From: Candidatus Gastranaerophilales bacterium
Lineage (GTDB): Bacteria > Cyanobacteriota > Vampirovibrionia > Gastranaerophilales > Gastranaerophilaceae
DNA length: 64,000 nucleotides
NCBI GenBank assembly: GCA_944326585.1
Contig: CALVEN010000007.1
Coordinates: 282-64,281 of the forward strand
Direction: 5' to 3'
The position numbers and the translations under genes are program-made. Positions 11,458 through 64,000 of this stretch are shown here, one piece after another (the first letter of the stretch is position 1; each line of letters opens with the position of its first letter). The notes below the pieces were generated by a model that saw only the letters and a program-made list of their open reading frames with translations, made no database searches and was not told the DNA's origin.

Positions 11458-14400
11458 CTATTGATCAATCAAAACTCTGTCGAGGCAGACTTTTGGCGAG
11501 TATTTCCATTCGCGGTAGGTTATACGTTTGACCTTAAACCCGCAGCGTTCAAGGATTGCCTGTTTTTTCATATTGGAAACGGTTTGTTTTACGTTGTCTT
11601 CAACCCCGTCGATTTCCACAATGAATTTTTTATCCACCAATAAGTCAGCTTTCAAGCCTGCAATTTCGCTTCCCGCAAGAACTTCATGTCCGAGTTCGCG
11701 CATTTCAGATGCTATTTCGCGTTCAAGATTGTTTTTGTATTCGTTTTCGTCGATTTGCAAGTTTTCAAGCGCTGCTTGTTTATTCTGGTATTCTTTTATG
11801 TATGAAATATAGTTTCTGAAATGACCTTCCGGAAGGTTTGTTATGTCGCGCGAAACAAAGTTTACAACCTTGTATCTAGCACGGGTAATCGCAACGTTAA
11901 AGAGGTTCGGTTTTTGTAAAAATGTTGCGCTTTGTGCGTGGCTGTTGTTTGCAAAAGCCCATGACATAAGGATTATATCGCGTTCATCTCCCTGGAATGT
12001 ATGAGCTGTACCGATTTCTACCTGATGTTTTCTGAGCATATGATCTGACAGAACTTTTGAAACAGAGGTTTTCAACTGTTCCACCTGCGCTCTGAACGGT
12101 GAAATTATGCCGATAGATACAGGGTTATCGGGGTTTTTGCGTTCATCTTCTATAATTATTTCGTGTAACTTTTTGATTACGGCTTCGACTTCGGGAAGGT
12201 TGCGTGTTGCGTCATAATCAACTTTGCCTTCCGGCACTTCGACAAGTTCAAGAACCTTTTGACCGCCAAAGTCTTTTCTCATAACCCTTATTCTGTCGCC
12301 GTAAAATTCATGGTTTGAAAATTCTATAATCGGCGGCAGGCTTCTGAAATGTTCGTCAAGCATTACGGAATTCATTGAATAGTAATCCGCAAGGTCGAAC
12401 ATGGAATTTGTTCTGAAACGCCACATTAACTGATATTTGTCAGGAATTCCGTATTGATTTAAGAAAGACTGTTCTTTTGCTTTTTCTAAGAATGACAAAT
12501 GCGGTAATTGTTTGTCGTCGCCCACGATTACTGCGCGTTTTGCGCGGAACATTATCGGGAAGCAGCTTGCAATATCGCATTGTGACGCTTCATCAATAAT
12601 TGCAACGTCAAACATTCCGGGTTTCATAGGCAATGACCCTGAAACCGCATAAGTTGTTACGCACCAGCAGGGGAATGCCTCCAGAAGCGGTCTGAAATCT
12701 TCTTCTTCCAAAATGCGGTTTTGGAGATTTTTTTTGCGTTCAACAAGTGATTTTGCGTGAACTTTTAATCTCTGGCATTTTATCTGGTCGCGCAAAAGCC
12801 CTTTCAAAGCTTCGCGGCGTTTGTTTTTCAAGATATTTACCGCAAGATTTTTTTGTTTTTTCTTCATCTGGCGGATTTGTTCCATAAGCACATGGAGGTT
12901 GCCTGTTTTTTGAATATCAGCTTCAATTTTTCTTAAATTACAGTTCATAAGCGCAACTTCAAGCTCTGCGCTCAGTCTTGAAAGATTTTCATAATTTACG
13001 TCGAATTCGTTCAGTTTGAGAATTTTTTTAAGGTGTCTAAGGCTTGTAAAATTCGCGATATTGGCGAAAAATCCAGCTTTCTCCATATTGTTATGCAAAA
13101 TTTTTATGATTCCTGACACCATATCAATTTCGCTTTTTTTGAGCTGGGTTGTTATGAATTGCATTTGACCGATTGATTTTTCGTGTTCTGTTGTTTCTAA
13201 AGACAGGTCATGCCATTCACGTTCAAGCTTTATAATTTGTTCGCATTTTTTTTCTGTCTGGTTAAGCAAATTCAAATGCTCTTTCATATCTTTTGTGTCG
13301 ACAAGGAGGCTGTCTTCATAGTCGCTGTCAATGTCAACCTTGCCTGACAACAAGTCCTGCAGTTGGTAGCTCAATTGTTTTTGATAATTCAAACGCCCTG
13401 CACGCAGAGCCAAAAACGGCGCGCCGAGTTCATTCAAGCGTTCCGCAACAACGTCGACGGCTTTGTCCATGCGGGAAGCCACAAGAACTGTTTTTCCGTT
13501 TGCAATTAAGTGTGCGACAAGGTTTACGATTGTCTGAGATTTCCCTGTTCCCGGAGGACCTTGTACGGCTATGAATTTGCTGTTATCAATATTTTTGATA
13601 ACTTTTTCCTGTGAATCGCTTAATGATAAAGGAGTTATCGGGTAGAAATCAGTAATTTCATTCAAATCTTTTATCGGAACGGATTTTTCTTTTGCATGAA
13701 CATATTCATCATTAATTATGCTCAAAGCTGTTTCACGGTAAATTCCGCTCGGTTTTTCCGCAATCTGGGTTAATTCGTGCAGCACACCTGCGGTGACTGA
13801 CGGACGTTTTGTCAAAATTATTGCGCTTTGATAGGTTACAACAACTTTATCAACTTTTATTGAGGATTTTTGCGCTGTTTCGCGTTCTTCTTCTTCAATT
13901 AATTCGTCAATATTTTCCGAATCTATTTTTTCTTTGTAAAAATCTTTTGCTTCATCTTTGGAAATATTATCTTCTGTTTCGTTGTCATTTGAGGTTTGGC
14001 TGATTTCAATTTCAGGAACAACTGACTGTAAGGTTGTCAGAAATATGTCTAACTTTTCCTGTGTAATAGGCAAATCCGGCACTACATCCAGAATGCCTTC
14101 CAAAAGCAGGTCGACTTCATCTTCGTCATCGTTTTTTTTCATTAAAGCTGCAAGTGCGCCTGTATTCAGAGAAAGCATTTCATCCTGCGGTATACAGTTT
14201 ATGTTTACCCCGTTTCTTTCAAGCCGGCATGGGACATACAAAAGCGGAGTCAAAAATTCGTTTTGTTTTTTGGATTTGTTGTTTTTGCCAACAAGAAAAA
14301 GATAACCGTAAATCAGGTATTTGTCTTTTGTGCTTAATTCACTTTGAATCATGAGTTCCGTCAGCTTGCTGTCGGAACCGTCAAGTTTAAGATATTCTTC

Positions 14401-14586
14401 GCCGGTTGTGAATAATTGCTCTTCTCCGGGAAGAAAAATCCATTTGTTATCTTTATCTGCCTTAAGGTTGCGGAAAGTGGAACTTTTAACCTCTTCTCTT
14501 ACGCAATCGTGAAGATACTGGCTTAATTTTTTGATAAAACTGTTATTGAATGCCGAATTGATGGCTTTTGTTGCTTCTTGTAACAT
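11458..14586 (-). CDS. SF1 (DNA2/Upf1-like) helicase fused to a C-terminal DUF559/Vsr-like endonuclease domain
   Basis: Walker A GPPGTGKSQT. Other motifs VIVGDDKQLPH, HFRSLPPIIEFSN, TAHTFQGDERDII, NVAITRARYK. C-terminal ~100 aa (ADLLVDKKFIVEIDG...ERCGFKVKRITYREW) resembles a DUF559 restriction-endonuclease-like fold. Confidence 0.8.
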   Translation of the reverse strand: MLQEATKAINSAFNNSFIKKLSQYLHDCVREEVKSSTFRNLKADKDNKWIFLPGEEQLFTTGEEYLKLDGSDSKLTELMIQSELSTKDKYLIYGYLFLVGKNNKSKKQNEFLTPLLYVPCRLERNGVNINCIPQDEMLSLNTGALAALMKKNDDEDEVDLLLEGILDVVPDLPITQEKLDIFLTTLQSVVPEIEISQTSNDNETEDNISKDEAKDFYKEKIDSENIDELIEEEERETAQKSSIKVDKVVVTYQSAIILTKRPSVTAGVLHELTQIAEKPSGIYRETALSIINDEYVHAKEKSVPIKDLNEITDFYPITPLSLSDSQEKVIKNIDNSKFIAVQGPPGTGKSQTIVNLVAHLIANGKTVLVASRMDKAVDVVAERLNELGAPFLALRAGRLNYQKQLSYQLQDLLSGKVDIDSDYEDSLLVDTKDMKEHLNLLNQTEKKCEQIIKLEREWHDLSLETTEHEKSIGQMQFITTQLKKSEIDMVSGIIKILHNNMEKAGFFANIANFTSLRHLKKILKLNEFDVNYENLSRLSAELEVALMNCNLRKIEADIQKTGNLHVLMEQIRQMKKKQKNLAVNILKNKRREALKGLLRDQIKCQRLKVHAKSLVERKKNLQNRILEEEDFRPLLEAFPCWCVTTYAVSGSLPMKPGMFDVAIIDEASQCDIASCFPIMFRAKRAVIVGDDKQLPHLSFLEKAKEQSFLNQYGIPDKYQLMWRFRTNSMFDLADYYSMNSVMLDEHFRSLPPIIEFSNHEFYGDRIRVMRKDFGGQKVLELVEVPEGKVDYDATRNLPEVEAVIKKLHEIIIEDERKNPDNPVSIGIISPFRAQVEQLKTSVSKVLSDHMLRKHQVEIGTAHTFQGDERDIILMSWAFANNSHAQSATFLQKPNLFNVAITRARYKVVNFVSRDITNLPEGHFRNYISYIKEYQNKQAALENLQIDENEYKNNLEREIASEMRELGHEVLAGSEIAGLKADLLVDKKFIVEIDGVEDNVKQTVSNMKKQAILERCGFKVKRITYREWKYSPKVCLDRVLIDQ

Positions 14587-15723: not shown

Positions 15724-15792
15724 TATAATAAATTCAAAAGGAGAATGATAGATATGACTAGTTTGAATAACGGGGGGGGGCGACTCTCCTAA
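15721..15792 (+). promoter_or_regulatory. Pilin-family expression cassette 1: extended -10, SD, ATG, poly-G, premature stop
   Basis: TGATATAAT 15721-15729; AAGGAGA 15738-15744; ATG 15745 and 15754 (in frame); G9 15772-15780; TAA 15790-15792. Short frame encodes M(ID)MTSLNNGGGRLS*. Confidence 0.7.
15772..15780 (+). repeat. G9 homopolymer (candidate slipped-strand tract)
   Basis: Nine consecutive G in an AT-rich context, at the same relative position as the tracts at 38022, 43499, 51035 and 60113. Confidence 0.95.
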
Positions 15793-15926
15793 GTAGACAG
15801 GACAAGGGTTTCGGCGGTATTGGTTTAGTAAAGTTACTAAGATACTATGGCACTAAGGCACTAAGAAGTAACATTCGTCATGGTAAGGCGGATCAATATA
15901 GTTGTATTCGCAGGGAACCTGTCATC

Positions 15927-17087
15927 TTGAACTGCCTGAGGCACGACAACATACTGGGCATTGGTCAACCTATAAACGTCATCCCGCATTTATTGCGGGA
16001 TCTCAATAAAAATATCAAGAGATTCTTCGCTGGCGCTCAGAATGACAAAACCGTGAGAAATGTAGGTCGCCTTTACTATGCCGACAGAAAAATTAACAGT
16101 CGGGTTAGTAAACCCGACCTACAAGTGACTATGGCTCAGAATGACATAAATACCTTCCCTCGCCCTACGGGAGAGGAATTAAGGGAGAGGGGGCTATCAG
16201 CTTATGATGAGATTTTGAAACGAGTTCAGGATGACAGAGTAGTGAGCGGAGCTCACAGTAAAGAACTTAACGTCCTAACGTCTTATCGTCTTAACGGCTT
16301 TAAAAAGAAAGCCGGTGCTACGCACGTAGACATGTCAGGCAACATTCGTTGTGCTGCGTTTACCCTCGCCGAGGTGCTTATCACCCTTGCCATAATCGGT
16401 ATTGTAGCAGCTTTGACTATTCCGACTCTTATAACGAATTATCAGAAAAAACAGACTGCATCAAAATTAAAACAAACATATTCAATAATCTCTCAGGCGC
16501 TTACAATGGCTCAAGCAGAGCATGGCGACACCACAACGTGGGAAGTTGCAGGAATTTACGATACTCCTACGAATGATACTAATTTTAATCATGAAGATGC
16601 AATAACGAAATTTACTACAAAATATTTTATGCCATATGTAAAGGTGGCAAAAGATTACGGGTACACGCAATATTCAAAGATAGGTTATGATGGTGACTAT
16701 CTTCCCGCCACAGGTCTTATTTCAAACAGTCGCAGTGCTTATGGGTATATACTGCTTTTATCCGGTAATGTTTTAATTAGAATTGGAATCGGAACCGGGT
16801 GTCTGAATAACGAGATAAATCCGGACGGTACTTGTGTTACTCGAACATACAAGAATATAGTATTCAAAGTGGATATAAACGGTTTTGACAAACCTAATGT
16901 GATTGGCAAAGATGTTTTTAATATGACGTTTGATTTACGCAAAAAAGTTTTCGGATTTCATAATTACGGTATAAGTACAAGACAGCGGTATTTGGATAAC
17001 TGTAAAAGTGATGAAGATGCACAAGTCTGCGGGTATCTGATATTTTTAGACGGATGGGAAATCAAAGATGATTATCCGTGGTTTTAG
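15927..17087 (+). CDS. Prepilin-type N-terminal cleavage/methylation-domain protein (pilin/pseudopilin-like), paralog 15
   Basis: AAFTLAEVLITLAIIGIVAALTIPT class III signal/hydrophobic helix at residues ~145-170 of the track ORF. C-terminal VDINGFDKPNVIGKDVF motif shared with paralogs. The frame stays open upstream to the G9 tract. Internal ATG 16332 gives a conventional MSGNIRCAA|FTLAE leader. Confidence 0.85.
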   Translation: MNCLRHDNILGIGQPINVIPHLLRDLNKNIKRFFAGAQNDKTVRNVGRLYYADRKINSRVSKPDLQVTMAQNDINTFPRPTGEELRERGLSAYDEILKRVQDDRVVSGAHSKELNVLTSYRLNGFKKKAGATHVDMSGNIRCAAFTLAEVLITLAIIGIVAALTIPTLITNYQKKQTASKLKQTYSIISQALTMAQAEHGDTTTWEVAGIYDTPTNDTNFNHEDAITKFTTKYFMPYVKVAKDYGYTQYSKIGYDGDYLPATGLISNSRSAYGYILLLSGNVLIRIGIGTGCLNNEINPDGTCVTRTYKNIVFKVDINGFDKPNVIGKDVFNMTFDLRKKVFGFHNYGISTRQRYLDNCKSDEDAQVCGYLIFLDGWEIKDDYPWF

Positions 17088-20307: not shown

Positions 20308-20414
20308 TCCATTACCAGTATAACTCGTTTTTGAAAGTATTTCAAGAATGATATCAAGAAATATGATTAGAATTTGGGATATATAGAAATTGTACTGCGC
20401 GCCGTAGACGGCGT

Positions 20415-21342
20415 ATCTACAATAGTAGAAATTTAGTATAGGTATTAAACCGGCAATTATACAATGCACTGCGGTGGCGATCTACAATAGTAGAAATTTA
20501 ATATAGGTATTAAACTCGTGGAGTAAATCAACGTGCTTGCCCATCTACAATAGTAGAAATTTAATATAGGTATTAAACAAATAGAATCATCAAAAGGCAC
20601 CTTTTAATCTACAATAGTAGAAATTTAATATAGGTATTAAACATGGTTCGTCTGCCTTATATTCGCTTCGGATCTACAATAGTAGAAATTTAATATAGGT
20701 ATTAAACTTCAAGACCGCCAAACATGCCCAAAATATCTACAATAGTAGAAATTTAATATAGGTATTAAACATTGCGTCAAACCTTGGCAACGGCAAATCT
20801 ACAATAGTAGAAATTTAATATAGGTATTAAACAGGAAGATTATGAACAACAAGAAGAATAATCTACAATAGTAGAAATTTAATATAGGTATTAAACAAAA
20901 AATCATGACAATAATACACGCTTTATCTACAATAGTAGAAATTTAATATAGGTATTAAACATCAATTTTGCAACAGCAAGTATCAGTGATCTACAATAGT
21001 AGAAATTTAATATAGGTATTAAACATGACAAGATATGAAGATAGTTTCGTCTATCTACAATAGTAGAAATTTAATATAGGTATTAAACAGCCGAAGCGAG
21101 CCTTCACACACTGGAGGATCTACAATAGTAGAAATTTAATATAGGTATTAAACGAGGCTATGGTAGTTTCTGGCGATGTATCTACAATAGTAGAAATTTA
21201 ATATAGGTATTAAACAAATGAATGCATATCTTGATACGGCGGAATCTACAATAGTAGAAATTTAATATAGGTATTAAACAACTCTCGGGCATCAATGCTA
21301 CTTCATATCTACAATAGTAGAAATTTAATATAGGTATTAAAC
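20415..21342 (-). CRISPR. Type V-A CRISPR array, 15 repeats and 14 spacers
   Basis: 36-nt repeat, minus-strand reading GTTTAATACCTATATTAAATTTCTACTATTGTAGAT. This carries the Cas12a crRNA handle AAUUUCUACU-AUU-GUAGAU. Repeat starts on the + strand: 20415, 20480, 20543, 20607, 20672, 20735, 20797, 20861, 20925, 20989, 21053, 21118, 21180, 21244, 21307. Spacers are 26-29 nt. The leader-distal repeat (20415-20450) has one substitution. Confidence 0.97.
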
Positions 21343-21479: not shown

Positions 21480-21755
21480 CTAATCTACTATTATTATATC
21501 ACTTTCTTCATTTTTTAAAAAGCCATATTTAGAAATTTTACAATTTTCACTTGTTTCTATTATTAAAACACTATCAGTTTGTTTAAATAAATTTTTAAAA
21601 ACACTATCTATTTCATTTTTTATAATATCTAATAATCGTTTGCTATTTTGTATTTTATATACAGAAAATTGCATTCGGTTCCCGTATTTTCGTAAAAATT
21701 TTGAAAATTGTGTTCTTAATTTATCATCCGCTATATCATAACTTACTAATATCAT
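21480..21755 (-). CDS. cas2: CRISPR-associated endoribonuclease Cas2
   Basis: MILVSYDIADDKLRTQFSKFLRKYGNRMQFSVYK is a canonical Cas2 N-terminus. 4-nt overlap with cas1. Confidence 0.92.
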   Translation of the reverse strand: MILVSYDIADDKLRTQFSKFLRKYGNRMQFSVYKIQNSKRLLDIIKNEIDSVFKNLFKQTDSVLIIETSENCKISKYGFLKNEESDIIIVD

Positions 21756-22710
21756 AAGACCGCCTTTGGGAATTTATTTATATCATCATCTTTCATAAAC
21801 CATCTGTAATATTGTTGTATAAAATCAAAAATATTTTCTTTATAATTCAATATTTCTTCTAAAATTTGACAAACAAAATTGTTGCTGTCTTTCCAATCTA
21901 ATTGATATTGTTCTTTATGTTGTGTAAATTTATAATTTTCTATTTGTTTTAAATTTATCATTTTCCTTATTTTATAATCCACAATAGGTCTAAATGGTTC
22001 TATAATATCGCATACTAAAGATTTTCTTTTATAAAATTCTTTATGTAAATTACCTTTATAAATGTCAAAACCGTATATGTTTAATATTGCTTCTATATAA
22101 TTAAATAATACAGTATACCCTATATCTAAAAGTAAATTTATTTTATCTCTTTTTACTCTCGGCTGGCGTCCCTGCCAATCAAAAGGTTTAAACATCCTAT
22201 TAAAATAAATTTTTGCACATGTTCCCTCAATGCCCATAATTTCGTAATTATTATAATCAGACTTTGATAATTTATTTATTGAATCATTTAATTTTTTTAT
22301 TCCGTCTTTAAATTCTTTATCTCTTAATTTCTTTAAAAAATTTCTTTGATTAGATATTTTATTTATAATCAATTGCTTCGCAATTTCTTCACTGCGAGTT
22401 GTTATATATTGTTTTTCATGAAGTAAAAAATTACCTTCCAATACAAAATTTATTGTTGAGTAAACTTTAAAACCGGGTGTAAATAATACTATTGAAAATC
22501 CAAATTTTTTGCTCCTTGAAATTATTCCGCTTGTTAAGGTAATACCACCAACTATAAAAAGTGCAAATAAATTATAGCAACTTAATTGAAATTTAATTTT
22601 ATCTTCTTTGTCAAAGATTACAACATTATCATTTTTGAAGGAAATTTTGTCCCTTCATGCGTAAAGACAATTATAACTTTTTTCTCTAAAAAATCTGGTT
22701 TGGTCAGCAT
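21752..22710 (-). CDS. cas1: CRISPR-associated integrase Cas1, interrupted by a 1-nt frameshift near codon 23
   Basis: ATG 22710 overlaps the cas4 stop (ATGCTGA) and encodes MLTKPDFLEKKVIIVFTHEGTK. The -1 frame continues ISFKNDNVVIFDKEDKIKFQLSCYNLFALFIVGGITLTSGIISRSKKFGFSIVLF... into the track ORF 21752..22441. One extra A in the A4 run at 22645-22648 would give a 319-aa Cas1. Confidence 0.88.
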
Positions 22711-23264
22711 AATAAACTCCTGTCACAGCTTGGTTCATATATACAATTTTTACATTTGTCTATATTTTGTGCTTTAAATGTATGAATATCAAAATCGTGA
22801 ATATCCTTGATTAACTTTCGGAATTTGTTATCAGTTTCTTGGTCTTCTTTAGGGAGTTTGATGTCATAATTTTTATTATCTTTAATACTGTGAAATCTTA
22901 TTTTTTTAACTTCATAACCCATCTCAATTAATGCATAATATTGTGCATATAATTGAAATACATAACCGTCGTATATTTTTATTATTTTATTCTTTCGTTC
23001 GGTTAAAATACCTGTTTCTATATCAAATGTATCAATCTTTCCGGCAATATTAAATTCTGAACAAAATATGTTTATTCCCTGTAAAATAGTTTTTTTATCC
23101 GAATATAATTGTTTGTCAATTGTCTTATGAGCATTAGTTCCTGAAGTTTGTTTTGTTGATTGATACACAGATTTTTCTAATGTCCCGTATAACTTATGAA
23201 AATAAATTGATACGGGACAAAAGATAAAATCATTTAGATATGAGATTAATATTGTTTCTTCCAT
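22704..23264 (-). CDS. cas4: CRISPR-associated exonuclease Cas4
   Basis: N-terminal Cys (FCPVSIYF), RecB-like D...ERK core, C-terminal CKNCIYEPSC cluster. 1-nt overlap with cas12a (TAATG). Confidence 0.9.
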   Translation of the reverse strand: MEETILISYLNDFIFCPVSIYFHKLYGTLEKSVYQSTKQTSGTNAHKTIDKQLYSDKKTILQGINIFCSEFNIAGKIDTFDIETGILTERKNKIIKIYDGYVFQLYAQYYALIEMGYEVKKIRFHSIKDNKNYDIKLPKEDQETDNKFRKLIKDIHDFDIHTFKAQNIDKCKNCIYEPSCDRSLLC

Positions 23265-26200
23265 TATTCACTATCAAGTTCTTGTATATAAGTTAACCAG
23301 TCAGAATTTTTTATTGCATAAGCTATTTTTTCACCTCCATTTGTATGCTTTATACGATTAAGGATAATTAGTCCTTTTCTGGCTATATTATAAGCTCCGT
23401 TCGCGTCAGCATTTTGAGGCAAAGAATTATCACAACATCTTGAATCAAAGAAAAATCCTTTTTTATTTTTTATCGGTGATAATATATAATCTTTTTCGTT
23501 ACCTGTAATACTATTTCTTAATTGTACTAAAAGCTTAAATAAAATTCCAAAACCATTAAATCCGTCTTTTTCGGCAACTGCATTAAAGAATTTTGTATCC
23601 GCCTTGTCAAGTATTTCATTTTTTATGTTTTGATAATCTATATTATATTTATCAAATAAAATTTGAAATTCCTTGGTTAAATTTACGGTAATATTATCCC
23701 ATTCATTATTCTTCTTAGGATTTCGGAATGTTCGTATTCTGTCACCGTATGTACAAAGAGTCCATTCAGTTCTGTTTCCGGAAGATTTATCACTGAAATT
23801 TTTATAATCAAAATTAAATTCAAAATAATTTTCTTGATTATTAAATTTTATAAAATTAAATTTTTTAATAAATTCTTTATCAACTTTTTTTAAATCAAAT
23901 AAATTTACAAAACCCGTAGTCGGATCAATTTTACTCGTCCACACTGCAGGAATATAAAATATTATTCCATTTTGTTTTGTACTATTTATTTCTTTTGTTG
24001 CAAGCTGGTATGCATTCATCAATCCGCCCTGTTCAAATTTGTTTTGAATTGATTTATCAACAAGATAACTTAGTTTATCAATTAATTTTGTTTCAAATTT
24101 ATCATATACGGATTTTTCGACTTTTTTTCTTGAATTTTTAAAGCCGCTATTTAAATCTTCCAGTACTATAATGGCATTGTATTTGAACATTAAACGGGTA
24201 AGTTCATGCACAACCTGACTCATATATCCTTCTTTTAATTCTTTTATGTTTTGAATAGTACCCCACGATTTTCTATTGGCATCTCTTTCGGCCTCTTTTC
24301 TTTCGAGTAAATCATGGTAATTTGTATTTTCGATTATATTTAAAGAACGTTGTTCAATAATTTCACCGTTCATGTTGATAACGCTTATGTATAGAAGATG
24401 TCTTTCGCCTCTATCAATACCTATAATGTGAATATCATCAGAGTTTTTAATTTCATTGTTTGTAAAATCATTTAATTTGTTTATGTTTTGTGCTTTAAAA
24501 TTCAATGTAATCGGAACATGGAACTGAAATTTATCCAATGTAAATCTTTTATCTTTGATTAAATCATATTCAAAAGTACTGTATTTTTTAGGATTATCAG
24601 GGTTTTTATTTTCAATGGGTTCATTTTTAGGATGAGTTACTTTTGTTTCAATACTCTTTTTTCTGTAGAAAATTTCCGCTCCGCCGTTTAATTGATATAT
24701 GACATCTTTTAAGTTGTCTGCATCAAATAAGGCTCTCCAATACATTGTATGCAGATTCGGACGACCTTTTGAATATTTTGAAAAATCTTTGTTATAAATT
24801 TGGAAAAGATAAAGTTTACCTTCTTCTACAAGTTGATTTATGTAACTTTCAGAAATATTTGTAAAAGAAATTTTATATCCTTGCAGCTCAACTTCCCGAT
24901 AAAATTGACTTATATCTTGATATGTATTAGTATCCGAAAATTTAAAGTTGAATTTTGACCAGTCTTCATGCTTATTTATAGATTGTTTATAAAAATCTAT
25001 TAGTTCATGACAAAATCCTAAATCAAAATTTGCTCCTTTTTTATATAATCCTTTTTCATATTTGGCTATCAATTCATCGGAAGGATTAAATTCTTCTTTT
25101 CTGGAGTCTGAAAATAATACTTTTGGAAGCATTTTATTGGGACCGGGAAGCAATTTATATTCTATTTTTTCATAATATGATAAAGCTGACTCTTTATCAT
25201 TATTAATAAAAATTTTTCTGTTATTTTTATTGATAATTCCAATGTAATAATTTCCGTCTTTAATTAACAATGTCCCTAAATTTGCTTCTTCTTTATTCAA
25301 GTCCCAGCCGCTTAAAAAAGTAGGGCAATCAAAATTAAGTTTAAATTTTTCGACAGAATAAGGTTTTTTGGTTAAATAATTTCTTGTTTTGTTATAAACC
25401 GGAATTATTTCAGATAACAGTTCATAATTAAGCGAATTATAAAATTCTAAATCTGTTTCAATTGATTTGTTTTTCGGAATAAGGTGTTTTATAAGCATCT
25501 GTACATTTTTTAGTGAATCAAGGAAATCTTTTATTTTTTCAACTGCTTTTTTGTCTTGTATCAATTGTGTAGATGTTTCATCATATTCTTTTTCAAGTAT
25601 AGGTTTTACTTCAGAATAAGTTTTATCTATGAGTTTAAAATGTTCATTTATTTTATCTTTAAAATAGTTATAAAGTTTACCTTCATTGTTGCTATCTTTG
25701 TCATATTTTGATATAAGTTCTTCAATTCTATAAAGTGAAATTTCTTTAATTTTTTTTAATTCGTTATCTTTTTTGTCTGTATATTTTTCTGTTCCGTAAG
25801 CCAGTTTACCTTTATAATTATTGTCATATTCCATACTCAAAAGATAATTAATATAGCCCCAATCTTTGTAGATATTTTGGCTTATTCCTGTATTATCATC
25901 CAGAATTAAATAAATTTCTTCTGTATTATAGTTAGATATATTTTCAATAACATTTTCAAATGATTTATTTTCTATGAAAGCATCAGAAAATATTTTAAAA
26001 TAGTTATTAATGAGCTCAGTTACCTGTTTATCAGATTCAATCGTATTAAATTTAAAAGAAACAGAATTTGCATCACTTAAAATTTGCTTATAAAGCTGTT
26101 TTAATTTTGGGATTTTAATTTTTGTATCTTGAATATATTTATTTACTATTTCATTTATACCCTGTATTTTTTTATCATTTGTTGCTTTTCCGGAAATAAT

Positions 26201-26923
26201 AAGATTATATTCTTCAATTTGCCTTTGATTTAAAACATGTGTATAATTTTCAACGGTAGAAAAATATTCATCACAATCAAGTCCTAAATTTTGTTTTATT
26301 GTGTTTTTTATTTCAGGAATATTTTCTGAAATTTTATTAAATGCTTTAATATTCTTTAAATAAATAGGCAGATTTTCATTAATTAACCTGTAAGCTATAG
26401 ACGTATGTTTTTCTTCATTTGAATACATATTTTTTCGGTTTGTATCAAAACCTGAAAAATACGTTGTGAATTTTTCAAACACTTTTATTTCTTCAAGGAT
26501 TTCATTGTTGTTTTTATAATATTCTTGTAAATTTTTATTAATCATGTCTTTTCCAAAAAGAGTATTATATTTGGAATTCTTAGTAAATCTATCGGAAATT
26601 TTTTGACGTAATAATTTTTCTATACTTGAAAATTCTTTTTCTTCTTTTTCAGATAAATTTTGGCGGTTAAAAAATTCTGTATATTGTATTAATAAACATT
26701 TAAAATTTTCATCATTAAAATTATCCAAACATTCATTAATGAAATATTTATGATATTCATCACAATATTTTTTAATTTTTTGATATAATATCGCCTTTTT
26801 TTCATCTTCTTTTAAAATATATTCCGCAAAATACTCCTTTGTTTTTCCAATCGGAATAAGCTCAAATCTTAAAGTTTTTGAAACTTTAAATAAATTGTGA
26901 AAACAGTCATAAAAATTTTTCAT
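23264..26923 (-). CDS. cas12a: Cas12a (Cpf1), type V-A effector, 1219 aa
   Basis: N-terminus FKVSKTLRFELIPIGKT. RuvC-I IGIDRGERHLLY, RuvC-II IVLEDLNSGFK, RuvC-III DADANGAYNIARKG. AGGAG lies 6 nt before the ATG. The repeat type matches. Confidence 0.95.
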   Translation of the reverse strand: MKNFYDCFHNLFKVSKTLRFELIPIGKTKEYFAEYILKEDEKKAILYQKIKKYCDEYHKYFINECLDNFNDENFKCLLIQYTEFFNRQNLSEKEEKEFSSIEKLLRQKISDRFTKNSKYNTLFGKDMINKNLQEYYKNNNEILEEIKVFEKFTTYFSGFDTNRKNMYSNEEKHTSIAYRLINENLPIYLKNIKAFNKISENIPEIKNTIKQNLGLDCDEYFSTVENYTHVLNQRQIEEYNLIISGKATNDKKIQGINEIVNKYIQDTKIKIPKLKQLYKQILSDANSVSFKFNTIESDKQVTELINNYFKIFSDAFIENKSFENVIENISNYNTEEIYLILDDNTGISQNIYKDWGYINYLLSMEYDNNYKGKLAYGTEKYTDKKDNELKKIKEISLYRIEELISKYDKDSNNEGKLYNYFKDKINEHFKLIDKTYSEVKPILEKEYDETSTQLIQDKKAVEKIKDFLDSLKNVQMLIKHLIPKNKSIETDLEFYNSLNYELLSEIIPVYNKTRNYLTKKPYSVEKFKLNFDCPTFLSGWDLNKEEANLGTLLIKDGNYYIGIINKNNRKIFINNDKESALSYYEKIEYKLLPGPNKMLPKVLFSDSRKEEFNPSDELIAKYEKGLYKKGANFDLGFCHELIDFYKQSINKHEDWSKFNFKFSDTNTYQDISQFYREVELQGYKISFTNISESYINQLVEEGKLYLFQIYNKDFSKYSKGRPNLHTMYWRALFDADNLKDVIYQLNGGAEIFYRKKSIETKVTHPKNEPIENKNPDNPKKYSTFEYDLIKDKRFTLDKFQFHVPITLNFKAQNINKLNDFTNNEIKNSDDIHIIGIDRGERHLLYISVINMNGEIIEQRSLNIIENTNYHDLLERKEAERDANRKSWGTIQNIKELKEGYMSQVVHELTRLMFKYNAIIVLEDLNSGFKNSRKKVEKSVYDKFETKLIDKLSYLVDKSIQNKFEQGGLMNAYQLATKEINSTKQNGIIFYIPAVWTSKIDPTTGFVNLFDLKKVDKEFIKKFNFIKFNNQENYFEFNFDYKNFSDKSSGNRTEWTLCTYGDRIRTFRNPKKNNEWDNITVNLTKEFQILFDKYNIDYQNIKNEILDKADTKFFNAVAEKDGFNGFGILFKLLVQLRNSITGNEKDYILSPIKNKKGFFFDSRCCDNSLPQNADANGAYNIARKGLIILNRIKHTNGGEKIAYAIKNSDWLTYIQELDSE

Positions 26924-28439: not shown

Positions 28440-28835
28440 TGGTGGAGACGGTGGGACTCGAACCCACGTCCAAAATGGACCAACATAAACCTCTACGTGT
28501 GTAGATACTCATTTTCTCGGCTGATTCAGGAAAGTATCACTACCCTTAAATCAGCCAAAGTATTTTTTTCGGAAATACTTAACCTTTAATGGTTATCTTG
28601 ATACGCCTACCATCATCAACGTACTGCGTCTTGCATAAGTGGACCCCAACAGCCGGCAAGCTGGGCTATTGAAGTGGCTGACTGCGTCTTACGCAGCAAG
28701 AGCGTATGCTCTTGAAAAATCAGCTTTAATTACGTTGTCTTTAGCATTTAATTTGCTATGCTCGTTGATAACCGAGAACAGCGCTCGGACACGCAGCTTA
28801 TATCAATCATCATCCTGTCAAATCCGGACGTCCCC
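28440..28835 (-). ncRNA. ssrA: tmRNA (SsrA), one-piece
   Basis: 5' GGGGACGTCCGGATTTGACAGG. 3' GACGTGGGTTCGAGTCCCACCGTCTCCACCA. Acceptor stem GGGGACG/CGUCUCC with G3:U. Tag reading frame AKDNVIKADFSRAYALAA* (GCT AAA GAC ... GCT GCG TAA). Confidence 0.93.
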
Positions 28836-37968: not shown

Positions 37969-38063
37969 TGATATAATAAACCCAAAACAAGGAGAGTGTT
38001 GATATGACTAGTTTGAACAACGGGGGGGGGCGACTCCTCCAGGTACAGATAGCAAGGTTTTAG
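37969..38063 (+). promoter_or_regulatory. Pilin-family expression cassette 2
   Basis: TGATATAAT 37969-37977; GGAGAG 37991-37996; ATG 38004; G9 38022-38030; stop TAG 38061-38063. Short frame encodes MTSLNNGGGRLLQVQIARF*. Confidence 0.7.
38022..38030 (+). repeat. G9 homopolymer
   Basis: Nine G. Position equivalent to the other four tracts. Confidence 0.95.
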
Positions 38064-38239
38064 GCGGTATTGGTTGTGTAAAGTTACTAAGATACTATGG
38101 CACTAAGGCACTAAGAAGTAACAGAAAAGTAGGTCGGCATTACCATGCCGACAGAAAAGTTTACTGTCGGGTTAGTAACCCTGACCAACGCGTTACAGAA
38201 AGAATTGACACAACCCCTGAAACAAATTATAATTCTAAT

Positions 38240-39079
38240 ATGATAAACTATAAATCAGAAAACAAAAACGTGAGAGAAGTTCAGTGTAACCACACCCCTC
38301 ACTCTACTCACTCGACTCAAGCAAAACGTGTCGCGTTTACTCTGGCGGAGGGTGCTACGCACGTAGACATGTCAGACAACATTCGTCGTGTGGCATTCAC
38401 TCTGGCGGAAGTTTTGATAACCCTTGCCATAATAGGTATTGTGGCAGCTGTGACAATTCCGACGTTAATAACAAAGTATCAAGAGAAGCAGACAGTAACA
38501 AGGTTTAAGTGGATATATTCAACATTAGCGAATGCTTTCACTATGGCTGTTGCGGAAAACGGGGCGCCTGAAACTTGGGATTTGAATAGTGCTGAAGATA
38601 TGGCAAATATTTTGTCAAAATATATGAGAATTAGTGAAAAATGTTATAATACCGCTGGTTGTTTGCCTCCGGATTTAAATATTGTTGCATTGACTGGCGA
38701 AATGCGTTATACATTACCCGGCAATGCAAATTATGTAAAATCACGTTTTAATAACGGCATAAGCCTTATGTGGTTTGAGCCTCATAAAGGGTGCAGTTAT
38801 TCTTATATTGATACTGATGGCAACCAAATAGATGTAGAAAACAGTTGCGGCTCTTTGTACGCTTTTATCTCAACGAATCGTACAAACAGATATGGTCTTG
38901 ACCATTTTGTTTTTACAGTTACACCGAAGGGAATATTGCCGGGCGGTTATGATTATAATGACAGCAATATAAAGCGGAATTGCACAAAAAATTGGACATC
39001 CGATGGTAATACAAATGGTGCTACCTGCGGGGAATGGATAAGACGCTGGGGTAATGCGGATTATTGGTATGATAATTAA
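38240..39079 (+). CDS. Prepilin-type N-terminal cleavage/methylation-domain protein, paralog 38
   Basis: RRVAFTLAEVLITLAIIGIVAAVTIPTLITKYQEKQT. The frame is open upstream to the G9 tract. Internal ATG 38369 gives MSDNIRRVA|FTLAE. Confidence 0.85.
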   Translation: MINYKSENKNVREVQCNHTPHSTHSTQAKRVAFTLAEGATHVDMSDNIRRVAFTLAEVLITLAIIGIVAAVTIPTLITKYQEKQTVTRFKWIYSTLANAFTMAVAENGAPETWDLNSAEDMANILSKYMRISEKCYNTAGCLPPDLNIVALTGEMRYTLPGNANYVKSRFNNGISLMWFEPHKGCSYSYIDTDGNQIDVENSCGSLYAFISTNRTNRYGLDHFVFTVTPKGILPGGYDYNDSNIKRNCTKNWTSDGNTNGATCGEWIRRWGNADYWYDN

Positions 39080-43440: not shown

Positions 43441-43510
43441 TGGTATATTATAGAAAACAAGGAGAGTGCAAATGGAAGATATGACTAATTTGAATAACGG
43501 GGGGGGAGCG
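43441..43510 (+). promoter_or_regulatory. Pilin-family expression cassette 3 (in frame)
   Basis: TGGTATATT 43441-43449; GGAGAG 43461-43466; ATG 43472 and 43481; GGGGGGGGAG 43499-43508. There is no stop afterwards. Confidence 0.7.
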
Positions 43511-44608
43511 ACTCTTCTAAGTAGGCAGGACAAGGGTTTTGACGGTATATTTTGGGAAAAGTTACTAAGATACTATGATACTAAGGCAGTAAGAAGTAAC
43601 AGAAAAGTAGGTCGGCATTACTATGCCGACAGAAAAGTTTACCGTCGGGTTAGTAAACCCGACCTACAAGAGAATATGGCTCAGAATGACAAGAATATCA
43701 TCCCTCGCCCCTTGGGGAGAGGGTGTCACGAAGTGACAGGAGAGGGGCTAAGTGACAAAAATGTGAGCAAAGCTCACAGAAAACGCTTAGTGCCTTACTG
43801 CCTTAGTAACTTAGTATCTTCACAAAAAGCCGCGTTTACCTTAGCAGAGGTTTTGATAACCCTCGGCATAATCGGTATTGTGGCAGCGATGACAATTCCG
43901 ACACTTATTACGAATTATCAGGAAAAACAAACAATTTCCAAATTACAAAAAGTCTACGCGTCTTTAAAGAATGCATTTGAACTTGCAAAAGTTGAGCATG
44001 GTGATTATGAAACCTGGTCGTGGAATCAGATTCCTGTAACCAATGGCGCGCGAACACAATATTTTTGGGAAACATATATTTTCCCGCATTTAAAGATTGC
44101 TAAAAAATGTTTCCCGATAACAACGGAATGTGTCGCAGAGGGTATTACAAAATTGAATGGTACGGCTGAATCTGTTGTTACATCTACACATGGTGCTTTT
44201 GTTTTATATGACGGTACATATGTTTATACGTGGGCTGGAGGTTCCGGTTTTCATCCGCATATTTGGGTGTATGCTGATATCAACGGTGAGGCAAAGCCAA
44301 ACGTGGTAGGCAAAGATATATTTACTATGTTTTTCTCGCCAAAAAATCCAGGGAATAAAATCGGCTCGTTTGATGACGATAATAATTTTGTTGACTCAGG
44401 AAAATTATCAACCCCTGCTTACGGATTAAGTTTGTATGGAGATGTAAACGGGGTTACCGTTGAAGATCTTATGGATCCGAATTTTGTTCTGGAAACTGAC
44501 ACAGGTGCCAAGCAAAAACATTGTTGTACCACAGAAGGCACAGGGTATATGTGCGGTGCGGCAATAAAATTAAACGGCTGGAAATTTCCCGACGGTTATC
44601 CCAGATAA
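43472..44608 (+). CDS. Prepilin-type protein, paralog 43; the whole long leader is in frame with the cassette ATG
   Basis: Single ORF MEDMTNLNNGGGATLLSRQDKGF...QKAAFTLAEVLITLGIIGIVAAMTIPTLITNYQEKQT...ADINGEAKPNVVGKDIF. Confidence 0.85.
   Translation: MEDMTNLNNGGGATLLSRQDKGFDGIFWEKLLRYYDTKAVRSNRKVGRHYYADRKVYRRVSKPDLQENMAQNDKNIIPRPLGRGCHEVTGEGLSDKNVSKAHRKRLVPYCLSNLVSSQKAAFTLAEVLITLGIIGIVAAMTIPTLITNYQEKQTISKLQKVYASLKNAFELAKVEHGDYETWSWNQIPVTNGARTQYFWETYIFPHLKIAKKCFPITTECVAEGITKLNGTAESVVTSTHGAFVLYDGTYVYTWAGGSGFHPHIWVYADINGEAKPNVVGKDIFTMFFSPKNPGNKIGSFDDDNNFVDSGKLSTPAYGLSLYGDVNGVTVEDLMDPNFVLETDTGAKQKHCCTTEGTGYMCGAAIKLNGWKFPDGYPR
43499..43506 (+). repeat. G8 homopolymer followed by A-G (an interrupted 10-nt tract)
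   Basis: GGGGGGGGAG occupies the position where the OFF copies have G9. Confidence 0.95.
43517..43872 (+). repeat. 356-bp leader cassette, apparently identical to 51052..51407
   Basis: A by-eye base-by-base comparison found no mismatch between the two intervals. The flanks diverge at once on both sides. Confidence 0.8.
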
Positions 44609-50973: not shown

Positions 50974-51055
50974 TGATATAATAAACCTAAAAAGAAGGAG
51001 AGCTAAAATGGAAGATATGACTAGTTTTAATAACGGGGGGGGGCGACTCTCCTAA
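50974..51055 (+). promoter_or_regulatory. Pilin-family expression cassette 4
   Basis: TGATATAAT 50974-50982; AAGGAGAG 50996-51001+; ATG 51008 and 51017; G9 51035-51043; TAA 51053-51055. Short frame encodes MEDMTSFNNGGGRLS*. Confidence 0.7.
51035..51043 (+). repeat. G9 homopolymer
   Basis: Nine G. Position equivalent to the other tracts. Confidence 0.95.
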
Positions 51056-51407
51056 GTAGGCAGGACAAGGGTTTTGACGGTATATTTTGGGAAAAGTTAC
51101 TAAGATACTATGATACTAAGGCAGTAAGAAGTAACAGAAAAGTAGGTCGGCATTACTATGCCGACAGAAAAGTTTACCGTCGGGTTAGTAAACCCGACCT
51201 ACAAGAGAATATGGCTCAGAATGACAAGAATATCATCCCTCGCCCCTTGGGGAGAGGGTGTCACGAAGTGACAGGAGAGGGGCTAAGTGACAAAAATGTG
51301 AGCAAAGCTCACAGAAAACGCTTAGTGCCTTACTGCCTTAGTAACTTAGTATCTTCACAAAAAGCCGCGTTTACCTTAGCAGAGGTTTTGATAACCCTCG
51401 GCATAAT
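51052..51407 (+). repeat. 356-bp leader cassette, apparently identical to 43517..43872
   Basis: See 43517..43872. Confidence 0.8.
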
Positions 51408-58922: not shown

Positions 58923-59948
58923 CTAACTGCAAGAATGTTTGCCGTCCCAGGATAAATCATCACAATCCCAGTAATCCATATTGCCGTTATAAATTACCCA
59001 TGCAGTACATGTTACATTATTTCCCGTATAAGTTTTGTTCAGACAGGCATTCTCAAAAGATGAACCGATATATGTTCTGTTCGGCATTCCTTGCGGTAAA
59101 ATCCCATCGCGATATATATCAAATTTAAATACGTCTTTTCCGATTTGATTTGGTGATGCGCTTCCGTTTAAATCTACGGTAATGGTTCCGCAATTTCTAA
59201 AATACAATTCACGTTCTTCAGTGGAATTTTTATATGCTTGACACCATACTTCTGCAGCGTTGTCGCCGTTCGCCCCTAAAAATTTTATTGAAGTGCCGTT
59301 ATTGAGTATAAAGGTTTTTTTCATTCTTCCCGGATTGTCCAGATGAGATTTATTCAGCTTGTAGTAATCTTTACCCCAGCAGGCTGTATATATTTTTTCA
59401 TAATTGCTTGCTTCACATGTTTTTAAAATTTTAAGAAATTGCGGCATAATTTTATTGTATATCGGTTCTATATCATATCTATTATTTGCTCCCCAAAAAT
59501 TAATTGGTCCATATTCCTTAATTGCCATATCAAATGCACTGTTCAGGATACTGTAGGTGTGTTTTAATTTTGTTACGAATACTTTTTCTTGATAATTCGC
59601 AACTAGTATCGGAATAGTCATAGCAGCCACAACACCGATAATTGCCAGAGTAATTAGAACCTCCGCCAAAGTAAAGGCGGGTTTTTTAGAAGATACTAAG
59701 TTACTAAGGCAGTAAGGCACTAAGAATTTACTGTGAGCTTCGCTCACTAATTCTTCCCTCCCGCCCTTGAGGGGGAGGGTTAGGGTGGGGGGAATTTTTT
59801 GAGATCCTTCGGCTATCGCCTCAGGATGACCTGTAAAATTACACAGAGACCCCGAATGTTGTCGTGCCTCAGGCACCTCAGGATGACATGATACTTCCGT
59901 CATCCCGGACTTGTTCCGGGATCTTATTTTATCTATTAGATCCCGCAA
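58923..59948 (-). CDS. Prepilin-type protein, paralog 59
   Basis: KKPAFTLAEVLITLAIIGVVAAMTIPILVANYQEK...VDLNGSASPNQIGKDVFKF. The frame is open upstream to the C11/G11 tract. Confidence 0.85.
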   Translation of the reverse strand: MRDLIDKIRSRNKSGMTEVSCHPEVPEARQHSGSLCNFTGHPEAIAEGSQKIPPTLTLPLKGGREELVSEAHSKFLVPYCLSNLVSSKKPAFTLAEVLITLAIIGVVAAMTIPILVANYQEKVFVTKLKHTYSILNSAFDMAIKEYGPINFWGANNRYDIEPIYNKIMPQFLKILKTCEASNYEKIYTACWGKDYYKLNKSHLDNPGRMKKTFILNNGTSIKFLGANGDNAAEVWCQAYKNSTEERELYFRNCGTITVDLNGSASPNQIGKDVFKFDIYRDGILPQGMPNRTYIGSSFENACLNKTYTGNNVTCTAWVIYNGNMDYWDCDDLSWDGKHSCS

Positions 59949-60100
59949 TAAATGCGGGATGACGTATAAGGATTGTCCAAGCTCAAGTGTAATGTCCTGC
60001 CTTTGGCAGTGCGGGATGACGTTTATAGTTTGTAGATTTATTTTTTCACAAAGATTTTTATTTTTTTGAGATGCTGAAACCAGTTCAGCATGACCGGAGG

Positions 60101-60197
60101 TTAAGCTAACTGCCCCCCCCCCCTGAATGAAAAGTAGTTGTTATGCGTATTTGCGCCCATTTTTTAACCTCCAAGTATTCTGTTACTTATTATATCA
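60101..60197 (-). promoter_or_regulatory. Pilin-family expression cassette 5 (minus strand)
   Basis: Minus strand: TGATATAAT (60197-60189); GGAGG (60172-60168); ATG 60160; G11 (60123-60113); TAA 60103-60101. Short frame encodes MGANTHNNYFSFRGGGQLA*. Confidence 0.7.
60113..60123 (-). repeat. G11 (C11 on the + strand) homopolymer
   Basis: Eleven consecutive C on the + strand. Confidence 0.95.
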
Positions 60198-60220
60198 TTT
60201 TTTTTGAATTTTACAAGAAT

Positions 60221-63658: not shown

Positions 63659-63668
63659 TGTCAGGCAA

Positions 63669-63860
63669 AACCCTCACCCGAATTTCTAAACTCGCTGGTG
63701 CTCGTCAAGAAATTCTACCCTCTCCCTCTGGGAGAGGGGTGGCTGAGCCACGACATCATGTTTGATAATTTTGGTATGCCTATTCATGTCTTTGTTAGGG
63801 GTGCCAAAGGCACGACAATACAATGTCATTCTGAGCGCCAGCGAAGAATTCCGGTTGCAG
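63669..63860. repeat. Cluster of GC-rich hairpin modules (intergenic)
   Basis: CCCTCACCCGAATTTCT...AGAAATTCTACCCTCTCCCTCTGGGAGAGGGG; GTGGCTGAGCCAC; GTGCCAAAGGCAC; GTCATTCTGAGCGCCAGCGAAGAAT. The same module types occur in the pilin leaders, mfd and 57535-57681. Confidence 0.7.
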
Positions 63861-64000
63861 GTCGTTATGGTAATACCTGTAAAGTATCTTGTTGAAAGCA
63901 CGATATACAAGCTAATCAGCAATACAAAGAGCATATATAGAGTCAGCCTCGCGTGAACTTGATTTGCCAGCGCAAGTCCTAATAACTTCGAATTGGCGAA

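Follow-up and report, generated by a model that had tools for sequence, protein, structure and literature searches.

A candidate poly-G contingency switch ahead of a type-IV-pilin-like gene with a long, apparently translated leader in Candidatus Gastranaerophilales

We describe a pilin locus, referred to below as locus 5, in a 64,000-nucleotide stretch of DNA from Candidatus Gastranaerophilales bacterium (GenBank assembly GCA_944326585.1, contig CALVEN010000007.1, positions 282 to 64,281 of the forward strand; this whole stretch is called the window, and positions are counted from its first letter). The sequence suggests that the locus carries a phase-variable, or contingency, gene for a type-IV-pilin-like surface protein, and that this gene is switched by slipped-strand changes in the length of a poly-G tract; we assign this interpretation a probability of somewhat more than three in four. 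The type of mechanism is known from other bacteria while the host and the gene family are new, and the unusual part of the system is a very long, mosaic and apparently translated leader that separates the tract from the pilin-like protein.

Locus 5 lies on the minus strand directly past the gene speE and consists of the following elements, where coordinates are in nucleotides (nt), protein lengths in amino acids (aa), ORF stands for open reading frame, SD for Shine-Dalgarno sequence, and the arrow marks the predicted cleavage site:

60221, minus strand: stop codon of speE; the promoter-like site starts 5 nt 3' of it
60189..60216, minus strand: promoter-like site of the sigma-70 type, with TTGTAA at 60216-60211, a 16-nt spacer and an extended -10 element, TGaTATAAT (TGATATAAT), at 60197-60189
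60168..60172, minus strand: SD GGAGG, 7 nt 5' of the ATG
60101..60160, minus strand: short ORF of the present (OFF) phase, from ATG 60160-60158 through MGANTHNNYFSFRGGGQLA to TAA 60103-60101
60113..60123, minus strand: poly-G tract G11 (C11 on the plus strand), the putative frame switch; tract lengths divisible by three (6, 12) align the ATG with the pilin frame
59676..60112, minus strand: leader, 437 nt or 145 codons, stop-free in the pilin frame, built of hairpin modules
59593..59678, minus strand: predicted cleavage site and codons of the N-terminal hydrophobic helix, A↓FTLAEVLITLAIIGVVAAMTIPILVANYQEK, 86 nt
58923..59675, minus strand: predicted mature pilin-like protein, 250 aa plus stop, with the Cys-rich C-terminus NMDYWDCDDLSWDGKHSC

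An initial annotation, made from the letters of the window, had pointed out the -10 element, the GGAGG, the ATG at 60160 with its peptide, the G11 and the stop at 60103, and all of them are present at these positions. The promoter-like site is also the top-scoring one of the region in a scan for sigma-70-like sites (10 of 12 matches plus the TG extension). Between the ATG and the tract there are 13 codons, encoding MGANTHNNYFSFR, which places a homopolymer of slip-prone length (about 8 or more) in the 5' coding region, as is characteristic of contingency loci. With G11, reading from ATG 60160 ends at TAA 60103, three codons past the tract. The initial annotation had further claimed that one extra G would open the frame into the pilin, and our recomputation bears this out: the translation then runs through ...RGGGAVSLTSGHAELVSASQKNKNL...VIPHLLRDLIDKIRS...KKPA↓FTLAEV and is free of stops all the way to 58923. 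The resulting product agrees with the ORF annotated in the metagenome assembly L006, which carries a G12 allele.

The architecture of locus 5 is beyond what chance would produce. The window has 35.7% GC over its 64 kb, and among its runs of G or C, 12 are 5 bases long, one is 6, none is 7 and five are 8-11; the expected number of runs of at least 8 ranges from 0.13 (independent bases) to 0.29 (first-order Markov model). All five long runs are runs of G on the coding strand, all follow a short ATG-initiated peptide with an SD and a -10 of the TGnTATAAT type, and the ORFs that they precede, one each, are the only five pilin ORFs of the FTLAEV type in the window. From tract to pilin, 108-192 codons per locus are stop-free in the pilin frame, compared to 4-18 stops per frame in the other five; for the leader of locus 5 the figures are 0 stops in 145 codons of the pilin frame and 7-14 in the other frames. 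The probability of finding no stop, estimated from dinucleotide shuffles (5000 for locus 5), is 2e-4 at locus 5 and at most 2e-4 at each of the five loci. The tracts of the other four loci are:

15772..15780, plus strand: locus 1, G9 (OFF), ahead of the pilin ORF ending at 17087
38022..38030, plus strand: locus 2, G9 (OFF)
43499..43508, plus strand: locus 3, G8-A-G, an interrupted G10, in frame (ON) in the continuous ORF 43466-44608
51035..51043, plus strand: locus 4, G9 (OFF)

Contingency loci are recognized by differences in tract length among close relatives, and we compared strains using ENA and Logan assemblies reached through neighbouring genes. The comparison took in loci 2-5; locus 1, whose PolyA_pol-protein neighbour is without a record, was left out. 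Orthologues of locus 5 were retrieved by the exact SpeE protein from ten other metagenome assemblies, where the flanks are 95-99.8% identical to those of the window. A -10 of the TGATATAAT type is found in all ten, as it is ahead of loci 1, 2 and 4, and the GGAGG is kept in nine, with GGCGG in L008. The locus 5 alleles are:

G6: in frame (ON), L001
G11: out of frame (OFF), six assemblies and the window
G12: in frame (ON), L006 and L008
G-A-G6: out of frame (OFF), L010

In the ON alleles the gene caller annotated ORFs of 441, 477 and 437 aa that start at the upstream ATG; with tract lengths that are not multiples of three, a stop follows 3-7 codons past the tract. Changes in length hence toggle locus 5 between a full-length (437-477 aa) and a truncated frame. 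At locus 2 the tract is G9 in five assemblies, G10 (ON) in five and G11 in one, and at locus 4 it is likewise G9, G10 (ON, with a 376-aa ORF) or G11 in different strains, so that tract length varies among close strains with conserved flanks at loci 5, 2 and 4. Different loci can be in different states in one sample, as in ERZ28613582 (locus 5 G11, locus 2 G10) and in ERZ24773240 (locus 5 G6, locus 4 G9), and a further tract, a 13-G run in L091, has its ORF in frame (ON). An alignment of orthologous loci was the check that the initial annotation had proposed, and it reveals tract lengths that vary with matching consequences for the frame; neither a stop in the frame with one added G nor a uniform in-frame length across assemblies was found. 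Judged from the assembled sequences, the pattern of lengths among strains is that of slippage-driven contingency loci. The interrupted tract of locus 3 is unchanged in four other assemblies (L102-L105) and may represent a locked-ON allele. A search of JGI metagenome contigs with the pre-tract DNA patterns of locus 5 and of loci 1-4 gave zero matches.

Post-tract leader lengths of 170, 254, 275, 380, 437 and 446 nt occur at locus 5 among strains, and all six are 2 mod 3 and open, although the leaders of different strains are different combinations of modules (alignable indels measure 57, 30+3+24 and 12+264 nt). The initial annotation had argued for selection on the architecture rather than on the sequence, and six lengths in one register are what such selection predicts: the leaders differ by whole modules and are yet always open and in the same register. 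Its contrast between the leader of locus 5 and those of loci 1-4 holds with a qualification, in that the leader is not wholly different; the modules VIPHLLRDL and LPEARQH are common with locus 1, and a 36-nt module, LVPYCLSNLVSS, with loci 3 and 4. In the form with G12, the leader of the window would be 162 aa long, compared to 106-143 aa in the ON alleles of L001, L006 and L008.

The leader RNA of locus 5 is predicted to be strongly folded (z-score of -7.6 relative to shuffles). The modules are hairpins bordered by GTCATCC/GGATGAC, and both orientations of the same modules occur within leaders. The predicted stems of locus 5 are:

60071-60091, minus strand: 8-bp stem with 5-nt loop
59940-59960, minus strand: 8-bp stem with 5-nt loop
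59902-59922, minus strand: 8-bp stem with 5-nt loop
59756-59779, minus strand: 7-bp stem

An Rfam scan of the whole window detected no family in any leader, and a protein search with the leader alone returned 13 matches, mostly contig-end fragments, with no domain beyond N_methyl or DUF6613; by the latter search, the leader appears to be without relatives outside the pilin context. Copies of shared leader modules differ by 0-3 substitutions per pair, too few for a codon-position test of selection on the amino acid sequence, and a third-position bias of 4/1/14 was traced to the helix-coding segment and not to the leader.

The same modules also offer a non-coding control. About 250 nt of leader modules (for example, FFAGAQND) are located in the 3' region 63660-63912 between convergent genes, and there they are not kept open, with 5 stops in ~85 codons. 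The segment 63660-64000 includes the 3' end of a sixth pilin-like gene, which belongs to another subfamily, lies on the minus strand and ends in ...SIYALCIAD* with the stop near 63914; in other strains this gene encodes 509-514 aa and begins MGANRHNNYFSPRGG....

Some further features of the leaders are recorded here as observations in their own right. Leaders 1-4 each carry, close to their 5' end, a module encoding KLLRYYGTKALRSN. Its sequence is the reverse complement of the LVPYCLSNLVSS module found at the 3' end of leaders 3-5, so that in leaders 3 and 4 the two modules form a long-range inverted repeat with both orientations open. The positions are:

15850-15890: KLLRYYGTKALRSN-encoding module, leader 1
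38100-38140: KLLRYYGTKALRSN-encoding module, leader 2
43570-43610 and 43786-43821: inverted-repeat arms, leader 3
51105-51145 and 51321-51356: inverted-repeat arms, leader 4
38340-38400: AFTLAEGATHVDMSDNIRRVA duplicate, locus 2

A switch by inversion of a segment between such repeats was considered for leaders 1-4 and rejected; the reverse strand has 4-14 stops per frame. The last entry is a degenerate copy of the signal-peptide start, AFTLAEGATHVDMSDNIRRVA, which many members of the family (also P0002, P0040 and P0082; L027, L059, L064 and L080) carry immediately ahead of the real AFTLAEV and which has a GGAGG 17 nt ahead of an in-frame ATG. Many metagenome contigs stop in the leaders or just past them (L097-L101, L103-L105, L113-L115), and the repeat modules appear to break assemblies.

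The protein at the end of the open frame carries the N-terminal motif of type IV pilins. Its sequence, KKPA↓FTLAEVLITLAIIGVVAAMTIPILV (A↓FTLAEVLITLAIIG), agrees with the class III signal peptide pattern of G/A at -1, F/M at +1, Glu at +5 and ~20 hydrophobic residues, and the Pfam model PF07963 (N_methyl) matches locus 5 with 25.4 bits, above its cut-off of 21.2 bits. At position -1 locus 5 has Ala, and homologs have Gly or Ala. The N-terminus of the locus 3 protein has weak NCBIfam matches to the PpdD, ComGE and GspG models. Our own hmmscan found no match to DUF6613 (PF20318) for locus 5 and one of 19.7 bits, under the 24.3 cut-off, for locus 3, and the precomputed annotation gives PF20318 for P0001, a protein identical to that of locus 5, and for most homologs. 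The locus 5 ORF has more than 6,000 homologs, most of them annotated as N_methyl and/or DUF6613. An AlphaFold2 (AF2) model of the mature part (predicted local distance difference test score, pLDDT, 78.9) consists of a helix at residues 4-56 followed by several strands forming a predicted beta domain.

The organisation extends well beyond the window. Homologous loci in species representatives come nearly all from metagenome-assembled genomes (MAGs) of gut Candidatus Gastranaerophilales or Melainabacteria, including MEL.A1 and the misnamed 'Brachyspira sp. CAG:484' and 'Clostridium sp. CAG:967'. Among the representatives of Gastranaerophilales species, 23 of 78 pilin-like genes have a G8-G13 tract at the start of the leader. 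Leader length across species forms a continuum from 12 to 180 aa, and in the shortest forms (L011, P0017) the tract stands inside a leader peptide of ordinary length, for example M..AGGGGLYKANCG↓FTLAEV; in L011 there are zero start codons between the tract and G↓FTLAEV. From these short forms we infer that the ancestral state was a G tract within a normal prepilin leader, and that palindromic repeats piled up later between the tract and the signal peptide. In the window, the pilin loci stand singly among housekeeping genes (fatty-acid synthesis, recA, grpE/dnaJ, mfd, murA, speE, hydF and gatA).

The proposed mechanism would operate as follows. Transcription would start from the extended -10 promoter directly past speE, and ribosomes would initiate at ATG 60160 behind the GGAGG. 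After 13 codons the length of the poly-G tract sets the reading frame, as can be read directly from the letters. When the number of G's is a multiple of three (6 or 12), translation would cross a leader of ~90-150 residues and go on to the class III signal peptide and then the pilin; G11, the present length, would end it 3 codons past the tract and leave the gene OFF. The tract would change length by slipped-strand mispairing at replication, as the length differences among near-identical strains suggest. In the ON state, going by the established behaviour of class III signal peptides, the prepilin would insert with its leader in the cytoplasm, and prepilin peptidase would cut between Ala-1 and Phe+1 so that the leader is discarded. 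A leader that stays in the cytoplasm and is cut off would make the build-up of repeats tolerable; selection on it would act on frame and openness alone, and this constraint would explain why palindromic modules form a mosaic swapped among paralogs and strains. More speculatively, the strong structure predicted for the leader RNA may mask internal starts in the OFF state. The same switch appears to govern all five FTLAEV-type genes of the window along with many others of the order, so that the pilins shown by any one cell could be a varying selection from a large repertoire.

Several observations weigh against this interpretation. Among the species representatives (L011-L090), 22 of the 23 tract-bearing genes are out of frame in the consensus sequence, 9 and 13 of them in the +1 and +2 registers, which exceeds the two-thirds expected from random tract length. 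We read this bias as a sign that few paralogs are ON per cell, and it is the chief observation that keeps the rival explanations alive. Locus 5 itself is OFF in the consensus of 8 of 11 assemblies, the window included, and the OFF skew would also suit an in-frame state that is not the functional one. Tract lengths are read from consensus assemblies, and short-read assemblies carry some error in homopolymer length, with the difference between G6 and G11 or G12 lying well beyond it. The leader of 90-190 residues is far longer than the 6-26 aa of class III signal peptides (Berry & Pelicic 2015, PMC4471445), and the -1 residue is Ala, not Gly. A leader of that short class is not obtained from the upstream ATG, only from an internal codon if this were the true start:

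59745..59747, minus strand: candidate internal start GTG, 9 nt 3' of a GGAGG, with the 24-aa prepilin leader MSEAHSKFLVPYCLSNLVSSKKPA↓F

Together, this SD and the GTG at 59747 would provide locus 5 with a leader of normal length, and locus 1 has a weaker equivalent. A Foldseek comparison of the AF2 model with the PDB gave no significant match, the best pilin being the gonococcal 1ay2 with E = 2.3. The 64-kb window contains no prepilin peptidase or pilus assembly genes; pilB, pilC, pilD and pilT have been reported in a termite Gastranaerophilus genome (PMC5877343).

As it stands in the window, locus 5 is a hybrid. The match of the window to the speE-linked locus of other strains extends down to 59593 only; from 59678 onward the window matches, with 96.6% identity, a different pilin locus situated between MnmE/HTH and HydF in L091, and the two matches have in common the 86 nt that code for the helix (59593-59678). 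Based on comparison with L005 and L091, the 5' part belongs to the speE-linked pilin locus and the 3' part, together with hydF and gatA, to the other one. The junction protein P0001 is found on one contig only, and the structure reflects either genuine recombination of two paralogs, for example by inversion, or a chimeric assembly. This leads to a reading of wider reach, possible in our opinion and rather unlikely, in which the leaders are the working part of the system. The promoter, mini-ORF and G tract on one side and the helix-coding segment on the other would serve as anchors which, together with the palindromic modules, drive frequent recombination between dozens of pilin paralogs competent for expression; switches, leaders and variable domains would be reshuffled in this way, slippage would pick the genes that are made, and hybrid locus 5 would be one example. 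If true, a gut commensal would possess a mode of surface variation that is new and self-contained, and its prepilin leaders would be the longest known to be processed.

Among explanations that deny the tract its role as a heritable switch, the one that survives best, and which we still hold to be improbable, treats the leader as a structured 5' untranslated region (UTR). The pilin would be translated from an internal codon (GTG 59747 at locus 5), and the mini-ORF and tract would be irrelevant or would modulate expression indirectly, for example through hairpin opening or mRNA stability. Besides the normal leader that the GTG provides and the length range of known prepilin leaders, it can draw on the out-of-frame state of most consensus alleles, on the strong structure of the leader RNA and on the gene callers, which choose internal starts in OFF alleles (P0001). 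A UTR, however, has no reason to keep the pilin frame free of stops at five loci or to hold six different lengths in register with the upstream ATG, and where the modules are truly non-coding, in 63660-63912, they do gather stops. At loci 2, 3 and 4 no internal start is preceded by an SD at a distance of 4-12 nt, the minimal members of the family have the tract within a short leader that in L011 permits no internal start at all, and at locus 5 both the SD and the GTG lie within predicted hairpin stems. Leaky internal initiation in the OFF state may still occur alongside the frame switch.

Slightly less probable again is a restoration of the frame by slippage of RNA polymerase or by ribosomal frameshifting, which would make the tract a throttle instead of a heritable switch. 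Transcriptional slippage at long homopolymers is established for bacterial A/T runs, and an excess of out-of-frame alleles divided between both registers is in keeping with it; such slippage could also coexist with switching at the DNA level and add a constant low output. Nevertheless, the length of the DNA tract varies among near-identical strains and reaches in-frame lengths, and the interrupted tract of locus 3 is fixed in frame in five assemblies, which suggests that the frame of the DNA matters. A single programmed frameshift is unlikely because the direction of the required shift is inconsistent among alleles; no stimulatory element was identified, and no search was aimed at one.

Finally, it is very improbable that the genes are decaying paralogs frameshifted at the homopolymer, or artefacts of sequencing or assembly, as the majority of out-of-frame copies, the error-prone nature of homopolymers in short-read data and the many contigs broken in these repeats might suggest, since leader and body are intact in every allele with no other lesion, promoter, SD and ATG are conserved, the tract occupies the same site in independent assemblies and many species, the gap between G6 and G11 or G12 exceeds a miscount, and the in-frame state is common among alleles (5 of 11 at locus 2, for example).

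If locus 5 is a contingency locus, its closest known counterparts are found in Neisseria, where pilC contains a genic G(9-20) tract (PMC5953494). As in pilC1/pilC2 and in the poly-G/poly-C loci pglA and lgtA, a G tract in the 5' coding part of a surface or pilus gene would set the frame and tract lengths differ from strain to strain, and as in the Opa family, where repeats lie in the signal-peptide region, members of a multi-copy family would switch independently. The differences are that 1) the switched gene would be the pilin-like subunit itself and not an accessory protein as in the case of pilC, 2) the host belongs to uncultured gut Melainabacteria, related to Cyanobacteria, and 3) a translated leader of up to ~190 residues would separate the tract from the signal peptide. 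With type IV pilins in general the protein shares (G/A)↓FTLAEV, ~20 hydrophobic residues, Glu5 and a predicted long helix with a beta domain. It departs from them in the length of the ON leader (~100-160 aa at locus 5 and up to ~190 aa elsewhere), in a -1 residue that is often Ala, in a Cys-rich mature domain of the DUF6613 type that has no significant match among solved structures, and in belonging to a very large paralog family spread among housekeeping genes and not placed in a pilus operon.

The neisserial pilE/pilS system is likewise made up of numerous pilin paralogs in which the 5' helix segment is conserved and the 3' domains vary, and signs of exchange at the conserved segment are seen in hybrid locus 5, which could also be an assembly chimera. 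Unlike pilE/pilS, the five copies in the window each have their own promoter-like site, SD, ATG and tract; there are no promoterless silent cassettes, and neither a G-quadruplex motif nor a dedicated expression site can be made out. A silent-cassette system of the pilE/pilS type was ruled out, as every copy has its own expression signals. A G-quadruplex at the tract was dismissed by reasoning and not by computation, a lone G11 run being without four separated G-runs. The leader modules resemble Rickettsia palindromic elements and hairpins of the repetitive extragenic palindromic (REP) or miniature inverted-repeat transposable element (MITE) kind in occurring at many loci, in both orientations, and both in frame and in intergenic DNA, a likeness of organisation since the sequences themselves were not compared. 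They differ from the Rickettsia elements in standing in tandem within a leader that would be discarded, whereas those elements occur singly in functional proteins. Our literature search found no earlier report of poly-G pilin switching in Melainabacteria or Gastranaerophilales, and nothing on DUF6613.

Gastranaerophilales are common uncultured gut relatives of Cyanobacteria whose surface biology is almost uncharted. A large family of pilin-like genes, each placed behind a hypermutable G tract, would imply a stochastic, combinatorial display of filaments or pseudopilins, which in pathogens is a classic answer to antibodies, phages and changing attachment sites. The leader raises the questions of how long a class III leader prepilin peptidase can process and where selfish palindromic repeats can settle in coding DNA. 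There is also a practical side, in that the pilin loci would account for contigs that often break, and genes that are called inconsistently, in MAGs of this kind. Gene callers put starts inside the leader in OFF alleles, and starts called there miss the first ~70-190 codons of the ON-form frame.

The window contains several other features apart from the pilin loci, among them a type V-A CRISPR-Cas locus with its array at 20410-21342 and cas genes at 21752-26923 on the minus strand:

20410-21342: CRISPR array of 15 or more repeats, reading ATCTACAATAGTAGAAATTTAATATAGGTATTAAAC on the plus strand, at a spacing of ~64 nt
21752-22441, minus strand: Cas1, short
22704-23264, minus strand: Cas4
23264-26923, minus strand: Cas12a/Cpf1 (TIGR04330, 1259 bits)
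28440-28835, minus strand: tmRNA gene (Rfam RF00023, 135.6 bits), the only Rfam match of the window
11458-14586, minus strand: superfamily 1 (SF1) helicase-like protein, 1042 aa, with partial, sub-cut-off matches to anti-phage models (ProA, PLuB helicase-like, Hhe)

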